Source: a virus (lineage: Duplodnaviria > Caudoviricetes). Taken from it: DNA of 64,000 bases. A program made the translations under genes and the position numbers. The first letter of the stretch is position 1; the number at the start of each line of letters is the position of its first letter. The DNA lies in the IMG/VR virus record IMGVR_UViG_3300028886_000028, positions 224,001 to 288,000 of that record; one strand, 5' to 3'. Positions 22,260 through 50,728 of the stretch are shown in pieces. The notes beneath the pieces are model-generated. The model was given only the letters and a program-made list of their open reading frames with translations. It had not been told where the DNA came from and did no database searches.

Positions 22260-23882
22260 ATGATGGAAAAGGAAAAGCATAGTTTCGTACCTAATTTTGC
22301 TAACATAGCATTTACTGAAAATGGCGCAATATCTAAGTTTACAACTGGCAAGGTTATTACCGACCAATTCGGTAAGGCCGCTAACTATCGTGGACGTGAA
22401 ATTAGTGACGTTTTTAAAGACCAGGAATTACTTTGGCTTGAAAATAAAGAACAAGCAGTTCGTTTCCCGTTCTATTTGAGAATGGTGACTCGTAAGGTAA
22501 AGGTTAACGATAAAAACACCACTGATAAAGTTCAGAAAGGACAAGGCGTTCGTGACGAATCCTTTAAGCGTTTGCTTTGGCTTGCTGCCAATCAGCCGGA
22601 TTCGTTTTATAAGAACATATGGGTGTTACCTATGGTTGGCTGCTGGAAGGATTTGTGGACTTTGATGTATTACGATGTAATTCTCAAAACAAATGCCATT
22701 GACCGTTCCATAATCTTCGACCTTATTAATCAAGGTTTGAAGTGTTCTTCCCATATGGAATTGATTAAGAAGTTTATGCCTCGTGTTAAGACTAACACTA
22801 AGTGCAAAACTGATTGGACCCAGATTACAAACTCTCTTGCTCGTGAATTCGCAAATTATAACGGAATGTCATACAAGGATTATAACCATTTGAAGACAAG
22901 TGGCACAGCCCATGACTTTCAGAAACTTATTTGCAGCGGTCGTTTCAACGACATCAATTGGAATTTAATTCCAGGACGCGCTCTTAGCAAGATAACTACT
23001 CAGAAGTTCTTGTCAAAGCATGACCTTGAAAAAGGTTACACAGAATGGGTAATTTCTCAGCCTACTGTGAAATATACTGGCTATGTGTATGAATTGGCAA
23101 AGGAAGTGATAACTTCAGTCGGTTGGAGCGCAAGGGCCAATAAAATGCCTATTTTCAAGAAAATAACTATTGATAAACAGTTCGATGAATTAGTTAAAAA
23201 GGCAGTAGAAGACGGCAATGTTCTTGGAAACGTATGGTGCGCACTTGACACCAGTGGCTCAATGGGCGCTAGAGTTGTGGGAGATATAAGTGCATACGAT
23301 ATTTGTGTATCGTTGGGAGTATTCTTTTCTACAATTAACACAGGCGCATTCCATAAAAATGTAATAATGTTTGACAACACTTCGCAGGTTAAACAACTCA
23401 AAGGTGGTTTCTGCGATATGATTAATGACATTATTCATTCTAAAACTGCTTGGGGAGGTACTAACTTCCAAAGTGTCATAGACGAAATTGTAAGGGTTCG
23501 TAAAGAAAACCCTAGCATTCCTCTTGAAGATTATCCTCAGACATTGCTTATAGTTAGTGATATGCAATTCAATCCGGTTGGAGGCAACGAAGATACTAAT
23601 TATCAAGCAATGAAAAAGAAACTCTATACTGTTTTCCCAGAGGAATTTGTTAACAGTATGAAGTTTATTTGGTGGCAGGTAACTGGCCGTACAAATGATG
23701 CCCCTGCTACACTCGATGATAATGGATGCTATTTCTTTAGCGGATTCGATGGAAGCATAGTTTCTCTTCTTCTTGGTGGAGAAATGGCAGAAACTGAGGC
23801 TGAAACGAAAGTAAAGCCAACAATGGAGGAAATGATTAACGCCGCACTAGGACAAGAAATATTATCTTATGTAATAGCATAA
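22260..23882 (+). CDS. DUF2828-type helical + vWA protein (Ro60/TROVE-like architecture)
   Basis: N-terminal TENGA; GQGVR and GCWKDL segments; C-terminal MIDAS DTSGSM, WGGTNFQ, IVSDMQF. Confidence 0.75.
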   Translation: MMEKEKHSFVPNFANIAFTENGAISKFTTGKVITDQFGKAANYRGREISDVFKDQELLWLENKEQAVRFPFYLRMVTRKVKVNDKNTTDKVQKGQGVRDESFKRLLWLAANQPDSFYKNIWVLPMVGCWKDLWTLMYYDVILKTNAIDRSIIFDLINQGLKCSSHMELIKKFMPRVKTNTKCKTDWTQITNSLAREFANYNGMSYKDYNHLKTSGTAHDFQKLICSGRFNDINWNLIPGRALSKITTQKFLSKHDLEKGYTEWVISQPTVKYTGYVYELAKEVITSVGWSARANKMPIFKKITIDKQFDELVKKAVEDGNVLGNVWCALDTSGSMGARVVGDISAYDICVSLGVFFSTINTGAFHKNVIMFDNTSQVKQLKGGFCDMINDIIHSKTAWGGTNFQSVIDEIVRVRKENPSIPLEDYPQTLLIVSDMQFNPVGGNEDTNYQAMKKKLYTVFPEEFVNSMKFIWWQVTGRTNDAPATLDDNGCYFFSGFDGSIVSLLLGGEMAETEAETKVKPTMEEMINAALGQEILSYVIA

Positions 23883-32258: not shown

Positions 32259-32404
32259 GTAGATTGTCTTGATATGCGTTTTATTATAAATAAGGCTTAT
32301 TAGGTGGATAATCTACGCGGTTATCCACCTTTTTTGCATTTTTTAACTCATAAAATTTTTGTTTTATAAATATTTTATGTATATTTGCAAAGATTTAACA
32401 AACA

Positions 32405-32463
32405 AGGAAACATACAGCAAGTTTAATTTATGGATTGCAACTCTTTAAAAACAAATGTTTCCT
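32405..32463 (+). ncRNA. ACAGCAA cassette 1 (Cys GCA anticodon-loop cargo)
   Basis: aggaaacat/atgtttcct 9 bp; acagcaa; gga-ttgcaac-tct. Confidence 0.75.
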
Positions 32464-33711: not shown

Positions 33712-33837
33712 CAAATAATAAATTAACATTTTTTTACAAGTTTTATTTTGCTTTTAAAATGTTTTTTTGTATATTTGCATAAATAACTCTAAATTTGAAA
33801 TTTCTCAACCTTGGCAAAGGCTAAAAACAATAAAGCA

Positions 33838-33973
33838 AGGAATCTAACAGCAAAAACTATATTTAGCAATTGGGGCCGTTGACGGTAGTTCGATTCTGCC
33901 TGCCCTGACGAACAATATGCGCTAAACATCAGGGTATAGTTCAGTGGTAGAATAACGTATTTAAATGATTCCT
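33838..33973 (+). ncRNA. ACAGCAA cassette 3 with circularly permuted tRNA-Pro-like domain
   Basis: aggaatc/gattcct; 3' half (T-arm, tgccctga) precedes 5' half (tcagggta, D-arm). Confidence 0.85.
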
Positions 33974-40675: not shown

Positions 40676-40848
40676 AAGGAACGTACAGCAAGTTTGTTTT
40701 AAATGTAATTTATTTATTTATTCAGACTGAAGCGAGAATAGAGAAGCACAAAATAATAATTGCGAGGCACTATTCTTATTTTTTACCGCAAATAATGAAG
40801 AATTTCATAATTTGCAAAGTCATTCCCGGACTTAAAAGGGCGTTCCTT
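40676..40848 (+). ncRNA. ACAGCAA cassette 6 (long, cargo unclear)
   Basis: aaggaacg/cgttcctt 8 bp; tacagcaa. Confidence 0.7.
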
Positions 40849-44047: not shown

Positions 44048-44127
44048 AGGGTATTAGCTCAGTTGGTTTAGAGCGTCTGACTTACATTCAGAAGGTTTCG
44101 TGGGTTCGATTCCCTCATACCCTACCA
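44048..44127 (+). tRNA. tRNA-Val(TAC)
   Basis: tctga-cttacat-tcaga; encoded CCA. Confidence 0.9.
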
Positions 44128-44249
44128 AGGAAACTAACAGCAAGGTTAAAAATGGCTTGTAACCCGTGGGTCACAGGTTCGAATCCTGTCTTAGGCTTTA
44201 AAAGTCTGGGTAGCTCAGTTGGCAGAGCAACGTTAATAAAATGTTTCCT
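44128..44249 (+). ncRNA. ACAGCAA cassette 7 with circularly permuted tRNA-Thr(TGT)
   Basis: aggaaac/gtttcct; gg-cttgtaa-cccgt, T-arm, acceptor closed by ttaaa, D-arm, acg. Confidence 0.9.
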
Positions 44250-44255
44250 AAAAAT

Positions 44256-44329
44256 GTTGGTGTAGCTTAGTTGGTTAAAGCATTTGACTGATATTCAAAA
44301 GACCGGGGGTCCGAGTCCCTCCATCAACA
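44256..44329 (+). tRNA. tRNA-Ile(GAT)
   Basis: tttga-ctgatat-tcaaa. Confidence 0.88.
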
Positions 44330-44423: not shown

Positions 44424-44500
44424 AGGGAACTAACAGCAAGTTATTATTTATGTTAAAACATCAGACTGCAAATTTGAAAACGTTGAACAAATAGTTCCCT
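44424..44500 (+). ncRNA. ACAGCAA cassette 8 with isolated Cys(GCA) anticodon arm
   Basis: agggaacta/tagttccct; tcaga-ctgcaaa-tttga. Confidence 0.82.
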
Positions 44501-44516
44501 AATATTCATATTAAAC

Positions 44517-44924
44517 GGGCCTAAATTGGTATAGATTGGCAGTAGTTTGGTAGAAATCAAGCAGTGGGCATACACTAGAAATAGCAAAAAAAATATAAAC
44601 GGCGAGAATGTAGATTCTCCTGCTTATGCTTACGCAATGGCTGCGTAAGGCATGAGTCGAGAGACTAGGCTCTTAGGAACAGAACATCCTAGTAATTTTT
44701 CTTAGCGTTGTACGTTAAGATGGTGGAACTGATGACTTCTAGTCATCCCCTAGTTTTCCTCGTTTTCACAAAATGAGGTGGCGGTGAGTTAACTTTCCAA
44801 TGTTTTCCTCGTTTTCTCAAAATGAGGTGGTCTCAAAGGCGGTGTCTTCGGACACTTTGGGTAAGCTTGTATAAATTTCTATGGAACACTGAACAAGACG
44901 AGGGTTCAACTCCCTCTAGGTCCA
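44517..44924 (+). ncRNA. ssrA: tmRNA
   Basis: gggccta/taggtcc with G3:U, T-arm; tag ORF 44601-44648 GENVDSPAYAYAMAA*. Confidence 0.92.
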
Positions 44925-45100
44925 CTAAATACTAAAAAAAAACTTATGAAACATTTTAGCGAAGGAAATCAAGAAGAAGAGTATGATTCTATGAAAGAAT
45001 ATGAAACTAACATACCTTCTCATTTTAAAGACGATTAAAAAAGTAACTTAAAATTTCTTTTTTACAATTTTTTTATGTATATTTGCAAAAAATATTGGTT

Positions 45101-45444: not shown

Positions 45445-45573
45445 AGGAAGTTGACAGCAAACGATAAGAAATTTTCCCAAGCCGGAGGTCGTTGGTTCGA
45501 ATCCAACTAGGAATTGTGTTTATCCTATAGCTCAGATGGTTTAGAGCGCCAGCTATTTCATTTAATGCTTCCT
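45445..45573 (+). ncRNA. ACAGCAA cassette 9 with circularly permuted tRNA-like domain (CCC loop)
   Basis: aggaagt/gcttcct; ttcccaa-gccgg, T-arm, tagga/tccta, D-arm, ccagc. Confidence 0.85.
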
Positions 45574-46568: not shown

Positions 46569-46645
46569 GGCCCTATGGCAGAGTGGTCGATTGCGGTCGC
46601 TTCTAAACCGATTTATCATCGTGGGTTCGAATCCTACTAGGGTCA
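46569..46645 (+). tRNA. amber suppressor tRNA (CTA)
   Basis: gtcgc-ttctaaa-ccgat; ggcccta/tagggtc; canonical T-arm. Confidence 0.75.
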
Positions 46646-46829
46646 CTACGGCTTGGTGTATCCATTGAGATACTGAAATAGGTTAGACAAGCACAAGTCA
46701 CGTAAGAAATGACAGGCAGGCAGTAATGCTGTGCGAGGATTAGTCCCTTGCTCTAATCTCTTGATGGTAATAGAGACCTTTTTAAGTTAGAGGTTAAACT
46801 TATATTTTTTTAAAAAAGTATTAATAATT

Positions 46830-48430: not shown

Positions 48431-48503
48431 GCTCCGTTAGCTCAGTTGGAAGAGCACTAGATTTGTAATCCTGAGGTCGTGGGTTCAAGTCCCGCACGGA
48501 GCT
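48431..48503 (+). tRNA. tRNA-Thr(TGT), weak anticodon stem
   Basis: ctaga-tttgtaa-tcctg (two mismatches). Confidence 0.75.
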
Positions 48504-48575
48504 CAGAATAAGGGGGAGAGCCTGTAGTTACGGCAGAACAGCATTCGGCTTCTACGCCAACCTCCCCAAATTTTT

Positions 48576-50389: not shown

Positions 50390-50466
50390 GGCGTGATAGC
50401 TCAGTTGGTCAGAGCAACAGACTCATATTCTGTGGGCCGTAAGTTCGAATCTTACTCACGCTACCA
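50390..50466 (+). tRNA. tRNA-Met/Ile2(CAT)
   Basis: acaga-ctcatat-tctgt; ACCA end. Confidence 0.88.
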
Positions 50467-50578
50467 AGGGAACTTACAGCAAGTATTCATCGTGAAGGAA
50501 TGGTCTACTTGAAAGTCTTAAGAGCTTTTGTGCGTAAGCACTTGTGGGTTCGAATCCCACCGAAAATAAAAGTTCCCT
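50467..50578 (+). ncRNA. ACAGCAA cassette 10 with acceptor-less tRNA-Leu(TAA) body
   Basis: agggaactt/aagttccct; aaagt-cttaaga-gcttt, variable arm gtgc/gcac, T-arm. Confidence 0.85.
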
Positions 50579-50728
50579 AATTTCTCCATTTTAATAATTT
50601 TAATATTGCAGTGCGTTTTTTTTTAAAAATGCACCGCAATTTTAGTTTAACTATTATTAACTATTATAATTTTGTTTTTCAATGTTTTTTTTGTATATTA
50701 CATATAATAAAACGAATTTAGTTTAAGT

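Follow-up and report, generated by a model that had tools for sequence, protein, structure and literature searches.

A permuted tRNA-Thr look-alike in a phage tRNA array: a candidate Y-RNA-like mimic on a shared handle, with a Ro60-like protein as proposed partner

A permuted tRNA-Thr within a phage tRNA array

We analyzed a 64,000-nt window of a tailed phage genome (Duplodnaviria; Caudoviricetes; IMG/VR record IMGVR_UViG_3300028886_000028, positions 224,001 to 288,000), which is part of a single virus contig of 401,138 bp. The window carries a long tRNA array with 26 ARAGORN calls, including a transfer-messenger RNA (tmRNA) and a CTA suppressor tRNA. Within this array, an element at 44128-44249 sits between a tRNA-Val gene with an encoded CCA end (44048-44127) and a tRNA-Ile gene that begins 7 nt downstream, at 44256. 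The element holds the two parts of a tRNA-Thr(TGT) on one strand in rotated order, with the 3' part ahead of the 5' part, and the rejoined parts form a canonical cloverleaf. Our preferred interpretation is that the element is probably a Y-RNA-like tRNA mimic, bound by a Ro60-like protein that is encoded in the same window.

A sequence-only reading of this locus had described the rotated-order tRNA-Thr(TGT), and its coordinates and description agree with the sequence as we read it directly. In its native order, the element received no call from either ARAGORN or the Rfam tRNA model. Joining 44204-44232 to 44154-44197 in silico produced 73 nt that ARAGORN called as a canonical tRNA-Thr(tgt), which bears out the additional claim that rejoining restores the full anticodon stem. 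To this description we add that the AGGAAAC and GTTTCCT sequences at the two ends of the interval are a conserved stem, not mere spacer. The 5' strand of this stem begins one base past the encoded CCA of tRNA-Val and is followed directly by the unpaired sequence TA-ACAGCAAG. We refer to the stem and its unpaired sequence as the handle, to what they enclose as the cargo, and to the two together as a cassette. In the cargo of this element, the acceptor stem is exactly 7 bp long and stacked on a 5-bp T stem, and a loop of 6 nt (44198-44203) closes it.

As a control, 80 random genome segments of 122 nt and 80 shuffles of the element were rejoined in the same way, with an ARAGORN grid that was limited in length, since long variable arms otherwise absorb the flanks. 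No tRNA was called among 43,200 rejoined control constructs, versus 253 of the 810 constructs from three real elements. Orthologues of the Thr element were obtained from six other phage genomes or contigs, and pairing was analyzed on the alignment of all seven. Across the permuted cloverleaf and the terminal stem, standard pairs filled every pair cell (189/189), and 9 of the 27 pairs had changed on both sides. None of 500 shuffles reached these values, and sliding the partners by one to three columns reduced pairing to 33-51%. Pair 29-41, which bridges the two permuted halves, covaries (AU in four orthologues, CG in three), as does pair 31-39 of the small anticodon hairpin. Positions 33-38 of the anticodon loop are invariant, and position 32 is C or T. 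The first acceptor pair (1-72) can be G-C, C-G, or U-A, the second pair is U.G, and the linkers that close the acceptor are short single strands in all orthologues.

Some of these properties bear on one explanation of a permuted tRNA, namely that it is functionless debris of a rearrangement in the array, in which the decayed 3' part of one tRNA came to lie beside the 5' part of another. Recombination happens in tRNA arrays, and a study of the bacterial Y RNA known as YrlA cautioned that tRNA dimers may imitate such RNAs (Chen et al. 2014, PMC4201824). However, the acceptor strands of this element are complementary to each other with five of seven pairs covarying, pair 29-41 covaries across the break, and the arrangement is kept in seven genomes with differing sequences, inside a conserved handle. 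Because the acceptor pairs, the bridging pair 29-41, and pair 31-39 all covary, the permuted cloverleaf and its handle are a selected RNA structure and not debris. The covariation refutes the debris explanation, to which we assign only a negligible chance.

The ACAGCAA handle and its cargo

The handle recurs in the window. In general form, it is a terminal stem of 6-9 bp followed by an unpaired NN-ACAGCAA, where the spacer ranges from N1 to N3 across the family. The motif has five matches in the window versus 0.6 expected, and a strict scan identified nine cassettes there. Every 5' copy is matched by a complementary 3' strand, and the differences from copy to copy are compensatory. Five complete relatives, which are rumen phages of 295-413 kb, contain 9-12 copies each, all on one strand, versus 0-2 copies for a reversed-pattern control. 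Over the approximately 170 elements that we collected, the stem uses 88 different 6-mers with pairing kept, and ACAGCAA is fixed.

The cargo, on the other hand, takes several forms: permuted tRNAs, normal-order tRNA bodies, bare anticodon hairpins, and non-tRNA inserts of 150-170 nt. Permuted cargos are broken at 29/30 (Thr, Gln, and some Gly), near 31/32 (other Gly), or in the D-loop (Ile class). Position 33 is A in the Gln cargo and in one of the Gly cargos. Cargo this varied on one handle fits a modular handle-plus-cargo RNA and not a single maturation pathway. The features of the Thr element, the sister cassettes in the window, and the proposed protein partner are listed in Table 1.

Table 1. 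Positions in the 64,000-nt window of the parts of the permuted tRNA-Thr element, its sister cassettes, and the gene for the proposed partner protein
Feature	Position	Strand	Basis
Thr element: terminal handle stem, 5' strand A-GGAAAC	44128..44134	+	Pairs with 44243-44249 in the minimum-free-energy (MFE) fold; 6 core pairs invariant among Thr orthologues
Thr element: conserved unpaired box ACAGCAA(G), family signature	44137..44144	+	Motif recurrence in window and relatives
Thr element: A/U-rich 5' linker from box to cargo	44145..44153	+	Length and sequence vary among orthologues
Thr element: anticodon hairpin; nt 30-31 GG, loop CTTGTAA (TGT at 44158-44160), nt 39-43 CCCGT	44154..44167	+	Loop conservation; pair 31-39 covaries
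Thr element: variable loop GGGTC and T arm ACAGG-TTCGAAT-CCTGT	44168..44189	+	Two covarying T-stem pairs; aligns to YrlA T arm
Thr element: loop-sealed acceptor helix; 3' strand CTTAGGC, T73, loop TTAAAA, 5' strand GTCTGGG	44190..44210	+	5/7 pairs compensatory among orthologues
Thr element: U8-A9, D arm GCTC-AGTTGGCA-GAGC, A26, nt 27-29 ACG	44211..44232	+	ACG pairs with 44165-44167; 29-41 covaries; aligns to YrlA D arm
Thr element: A-rich 3' linker and handle stem 3' strand GTTTCC-T	44233..44249	+	Sequence, MFE fold, orthologue pairing
Sister cassette: short hairpin cargo	32406..32462	+	Cassette scans
Sister cassette: permuted tRNA-Gln(TTG)-like cargo broken at 29/30, A33	33839..33972	+	Cassette scans
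Sister cassette: 171-nt non-tRNA cargo	40677..40847	+	Cassette scans
Sister cassette: bare anticodon-type hairpin CAGA-CTGCAAA-TTTG, just upstream of tmRNA	44425..44499	+	Sequence, cassette comparison
Sister cassette: permuted tRNA-Gly(CCC)-like cargo broken near 31/32	45445..45573	+	YrlA 27.6 bits; orthologues L006, L027
Sister cassette: normal-order type II tRNA body (Leu TAA-like), 3-bp acceptor only	50468..50577	+	Cassette scans
Proposed partner: gene for 540-aa DUF2828/DUF7788 and vWA protein	22260..23882	+	Pfam, predicted fold, gene linkage

The Ile-class cargos carry the anticodons GAT, CAT, or AAT, so that variation is confined to the wobble base. Two of them (L080:2362 and L084 rc 3088, where L numbers are our labels and rc denotes the reverse complement) encode ACCA. 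In both copies, ACCA is followed by AGG, as it is where a tRNA gene abuts a cassette, and this may be a mark left by the recombination from which the permuted cargo arose. Their acceptor is identical to that of the tRNA-Met/Ile2 gene at 50390-50466 in the window.

Several other cargos have informative orthologues. For the hairpin-only cassette upstream of the tmRNA, these are L079:3949, L081:1165, L083 rc 2238, L088 rc 19654, L005 rc 1067, and L035:7082; the loop form C-U-G-N-N-A-A is kept and the stem covaries. Its middle bases differ in each relative, resulting in the anticodon-like triplets GCA, GCT, GTA, GTG, and GTC, and the cassette looks like a variable specificity element. The type II body is called as tRNA-Leu(taa) by ARAGORN, and its anticodon differs among orthologues (L079:18337, L081:18238, L083 rc 19368, and L086 rc 4755), with TAA, AGA, AAA, ACA, and TGA represented; it is best left out of any count of decoding tRNAs. 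A normal-order Lys-like body (L078:1943, L080:1883, L084 rc 2546, L086 rc 2795, L089 rc 3374, and L005 rc 1405) has a conserved 6-nt loop, ATTTTA, and an anticodon stem that covaries, with CTTGG/CCAAG versus CCTGG/CCAGG. The long non-tRNA cargo is also conserved, and its copies (40677-40847 in the window, L078:8972, and L080:8275) share a GCGAGGCAC segment.

The window contains further features of the array that we note in passing. The phage's own tmRNA (44517-44925) has the tag GENVDSPAYAYAMAA. The suppressor-type tRNA with anticodon CTA lies at 46569-46646 and suggests that TAG recoding is possible. TAnnTTTG-type motifs precede some cassettes and tRNA groups (32380-32389, 33771-33782, and 50690-50700). 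As read from the sequence alone, they resemble the -7 promoter boxes of Bacteroidota, which would be consistent with a rumen Bacteroidota host.

We considered two other identities for the handle. An integron attC-like site or a transposon inverted repeat was dropped, as the box is confined to one strand, the stems show RNA-like covariation, and the copies run in the same direction as the tRNAs. A self-cleaving ribozyme was rejected, as the handle matches no known ribozyme or RNA family at E values up to 10. A search of the phage collection returned no close relative, with matches at the tRNA level only, and we found no published description of the handle family in the literature on permuted phage tRNAs, DUF2828, DUF7788, or the motif. 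Compared by architecture alone, the dictyostelid Class I RNAs are similar by description, having a short stem that joins the ends, an unpaired motif after its 5' strand, and a variable remainder (PMC7919456). They differ in being eukaryotic, 42-65 nt long, and bound by a protein with an RNA recognition motif, and no Rfam match was seen.

A Ro60-like protein and the resemblance to YrlA

The protein that we propose as a partner (Table 1) matches DUF7788 in Pfam with an E value of 1.4e-20, and its matches to DUF2828 and VWA are weak. It has 1,727 homologues, and the metal ion-dependent adhesion site motif DxSxS is invariant in the family. No PDB chain was matched by its sequence. We generated an AlphaFold2 model (predicted local distance difference test 78, predicted TM-score 0.75) and compared it with the PDB using Foldseek, in which the top ten matches were all Ro60/TROVE structures over the full length. 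A second structural aligner returned the same nine Ro60 entries, including Ro60 of Thermus phage phiLo, with Z scores of 19.1-14.4 over approximately 410-420 residues, while matches to the VWA part alone scored at about Z 10. As modeled, the protein is thus predicted to have a Ro60-like fold.

The gene and the cassettes occur together. The protein is encoded in five of five further cassette-bearing contigs versus none of 14 control genomes. Because these five contigs are probably related to each other, we also performed the reverse test from the side of the protein, scanning for cassettes in the flanks of 78 viral loci with homologues at 24-79% identity. Among the 34 loci less than 45% identical, 15 carried one or more cassettes on the strand of the gene and no more than 700 nt away from it, for a total of 28 cassettes. 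Within the same distance at these 34 loci, neither the opposite strand nor a reversed-pattern control yielded a cassette. Cassettes directly flank the gene in L164, L166, L160, L161, L150, and L130, where their stem sequences are quite different. Some cassettes of the distant phages contain a T arm followed by a sealed hairpin, and no Rfam family matched these cassettes. Same-strand cassettes beside a Ro60-like gene match the genomic signature of Y RNAs and their Ro60 partners.

Other structured RNAs also occur in these regions. Near DUF2828-type genes and cassettes in distant phages (L158:4140-4719, L164:13220-13423, and L160:15714-15940), we observed ROOL, HEARO, and group I intron RNAs. In one distant phage, a ROOL RNA (266 bits) lies approximately 1.6 kb downstream of two tRNA-like cassettes.

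A phage system with both components has been described. In Thermus phage phiLo, binding of the phage Ro60 to the adjacent Y-like RNAs and recruitment of the host PNPase have been shown experimentally (PMC12135203). The phiLo system resembles ours in having a phage-encoded Ro60 fold with Y-like RNAs (Yrl1 and Yrl2) beside the gene, and the entries 9kop and 9l5y were the best structural matches to our protein. It differs in its RNAs, which have a CGAA motif and a stem-bulge-stem shape and for which no tRNA cargo was reported, whereas the phage family described here has another handle and carries tRNA look-alikes as cargo.

The cargo itself also has a precedent among Y RNAs. At a relaxed threshold, the Rfam YrlA model (RF02553) gave a full-length alignment to 44145-44255 with 34.3 bits (E value 2.5e-5), and it also matched the Gly cassette (Table 1). 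The aligned parts include the closing stem, the T arm, the sealed acceptor hairpin, the UA, and the D arm. Because the alignment spans these parts, YrlA, too, is a tRNA look-alike in permuted order. The Ro60 orthologue Rsr binds YrlA RNAs, the genes of which lie next to its own in 254 bacteria and 22 phages, and the RNAs carry tRNA modifications (Chen et al. 2014, PMC4201824). The presumed Ro60-docking element of YrlA is its GNCGAAN0-1G motif. The sequence-only reading knew of no permuted tRNA genes in phages, and here it was overtaken by the literature, since YrlA-type permuted mimics were reported in 22 phages in 2014 (PMC4201824).

The likeness between YrlA and the Thr element extends to the order of parts: a terminal stem made by the ends, an anticodon-like closing stem, a variable region, the T arm, the sealed acceptor, and the D arm. 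In addition, YrlA has a Ro60-type ring protein as partner and is found in phages as well. There are differences as well. The phage handle carries ACAGCAA and lacks GNCGAAN0-1G, and the two outer stems of YrlA are not aligned to the phage element. The phage element keeps its anticodon loop and is opened in the 5' strand of the anticodon stem. Its family has 9-12 copies per genome with interchangeable cargo, and the associated protein is DUF2828/DUF7788, not Pfam TROVE.

YrlA also raises the possibility of a nicked variant of the mimic, which we rated separately. In this variant, RNase P would cut the 5' acceptor end within the sealed loop and CCA would be added to the other piece. Helices of the acceptor, anticodon, and handle would keep the two pieces together, perhaps while the RNA sits on the Ro60-like protein, and charging might even occur. 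In M. smegmatis, YrlA has an acceptor of 7 bp; in vivo, RNase P cuts this RNA and CCA is added to it, with the RNA staying in two pieces (PMC4201824). The acceptor of the Thr element is likewise exactly 7 bp on a 5-bp T stem, and its closing linkers are short and single-stranded in every orthologue. Against this, Salmonella YrlA and D. radiodurans Yrn1 are uncleaved (PMC4201824), and the first acceptor pair is not conserved. On balance, we consider nicking of this kind unlikely.

Mimic or tRNA precursor

In the mimic interpretation, the element would be transcribed within the tRNA array as a Y-RNA-type non-coding RNA of approximately 120 nt. Processing of its neighbors would release it, since tRNA-Val ends one base before it and the site at which RNase P acts on tRNA-Ile follows 7 nt after it. 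The handle module, in which a 6-7 bp stem of both ends is followed by unpaired UA-ACAGCAAG, would be the docking site for the Ro60-like ring protein, by analogy with the CGAA-bearing Y RNA stem that docks Ro60/Rsr. The cargo module would be a complete, L-shaped look-alike of tRNA-Thr(UGU), sealed at its acceptor end by the 6-nt loop and joined to the handle at an opening in the anticodon stem between nt 29 and 30. Since it keeps the elbow and the invariant anticodon loop, it should be recognizable by proteins that read tRNA-Thr, and would not be meant for decoding. By analogy with Y RNAs, the RNA may tether or gate the Ro60-like ring. Alternatively, our best guess is that it may act as a tRNA decoy or adaptor in a conflict of tRNA cleavage and repair, and the phage also carries RtcB.

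A different interpretation is that the element is a genuine circularly permuted tRNA gene. Cuts before G30 and after G29 would be made by an endonuclease or by a handle-directed activity intrinsic to the RNA; RtcB would close the circle; RNase P and 3' processing would open the acceptor; and CCA addition would yield a working tRNA-Thr(UGU). The rejoined cloverleaf is flawless, and all nucleotides are kept whatever the break point (D-loop, 29/30, or 31/32). The Thr anticodon loop is invariant at 33-38 in seven orthologues, the Ile class varies at the wobble base only and includes the two copies that encode ACCA, and the phage encodes RtcB (197 bits). The anticodon stem of the ordinary Thr(TGT) gene at 48431-48504 is mismatched, as the sequence-only reading had claimed, and the mismatches are two (T.T at 28-42 and A.C at 29-41). 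This gene scores 62.9 bits despite them.

Other observations speak against such a gene. No bulge-helix-bulge is present at the junction, the flanks of which are unpaired and A/U-rich with the stem 9-19 nt away, and the tRNA-splicing endonuclease PF01974 was not found in the genome. Within the same handle there is also cargo that could never become a tRNA, and there are bodies already in normal order, for which rearrangement is unnecessary. The products would be redundant with ordinary genes for Thr(TGT), Gln(TTG, CTG), and Gly(TCC, GCC) in the genome. The acceptor identity pairs are not conserved, whereas ordinary bacterial tRNA-Thr genes keep G1-C72 and C2-G71. Sister cargos have A33 or loops of 6 nt, and the ACCA of the Ile class is followed by AGG, a possible recombination scar.

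We also scanned metagenome contigs with a pattern covering the joined junction of all orthologues. The matches listed were all ordinary bacterial tRNA-Thr genes, with no rejoined phage sequence among them. Contigs from RNA runs of bovine and sheep gut hold parts of the window at a best share of 0.50, which may be DNA carry-over and is not evidence of expression.

Circularly permuted tRNA genes are reportedly found in red and green algae and in Thermofilum pendens. Their products are essential tRNAs, made with the help of a bulge-helix-bulge, a splicing endonuclease, and a ligase. They resemble the phage element in having the 3' half upstream, a short linker joining the acceptor ends, and breaks in the D-loop or anticodon region. 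The phage, in contrast, is without a bulge-helix-bulge or endonuclease, its tRNA duplicates an ordinary one, and non-tRNA cargo occurs between the same flanks. If the phage elements were true permuted genes, the handle would be a processing signal in a handle-guided, perhaps Ro60-like-protein-guided, pathway that takes the place of the bulge-helix-bulge and produces tRNAs from differing break positions, and the RtcB-closed RNAs would be the first such genes outside eukaryotes and archaea. We regard this set of claims as improbable.

The sequence-only reading had left two fates for the RNA, maturation through a circular intermediate or service as an uncut mimic. The evidence favors the mimic, and the circular route has become the less favored of the two. 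The mimic is favored because the handle also encloses cargo unable to become a tRNA, namely bare hairpins, the body with a 6-nt loop, the body with a 3-bp acceptor, and the inserts of 150-170 nt. It is also favored because an ordinary Thr(TGT) gene is present and the first acceptor pair differs among orthologues, and because a bulge-helix-bulge and splicing endonuclease are missing while the YrlA topology and an encoded Ro60-fold protein are present.

Several points nevertheless weigh against the mimic. It has no obvious need for every tRNA nucleotide, for an invariant anticodon loop, or for Ile-class variation at the wobble base only, and the encoded ACCA and the phage RtcB would also fit a real tRNA precursor. 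The YrlA score of the element lies below the gathering score of 69 bits, and the canonical CGAA motif is absent from it and present in only 1 of 174 family members. Pfam TROVE has no match in the six frames of the genome, so the Ro60 assignment is based on predicted structure, and the gene is located approximately 20 kb upstream of the element on the same strand, not adjoining it, where the yardstick for YrlA is a Ro60/Rsr gene within about 4 kb. Binding of the protein to the handle is proposed from fold, analogy, and gene linkage. Taking both sides together, we judge a Y-RNA-like tRNA mimic bound by the Ro60-like protein to be the probable identity of the element, an assessment that allows for nicking by RNase P.

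Y RNAs with tRNA-like modules were already known, but neither this handle nor its association with a DUF2828-type protein is described in the literature that we searched. A clade of rumen phages of 300-412 kb carries 9-12 Y-RNA-like RNAs per genome on this uncatalogued handle, paired with a Ro60-fold DUF2828/DUF7788 family whose approximately 1,700 relatives are without an assigned function. Permuted tRNAs such as these escape tRNA finders and, once found, should not be counted as decoding capacity. The family also makes the question of partners testable, including which tRNA-binding factor is tethered or decoyed and whether RtcB repair is involved. With cargo that extends from a bare anticodon hairpin to a complete, variously opened tRNA, these phages provide a natural series showing which parts of the tRNA matter.
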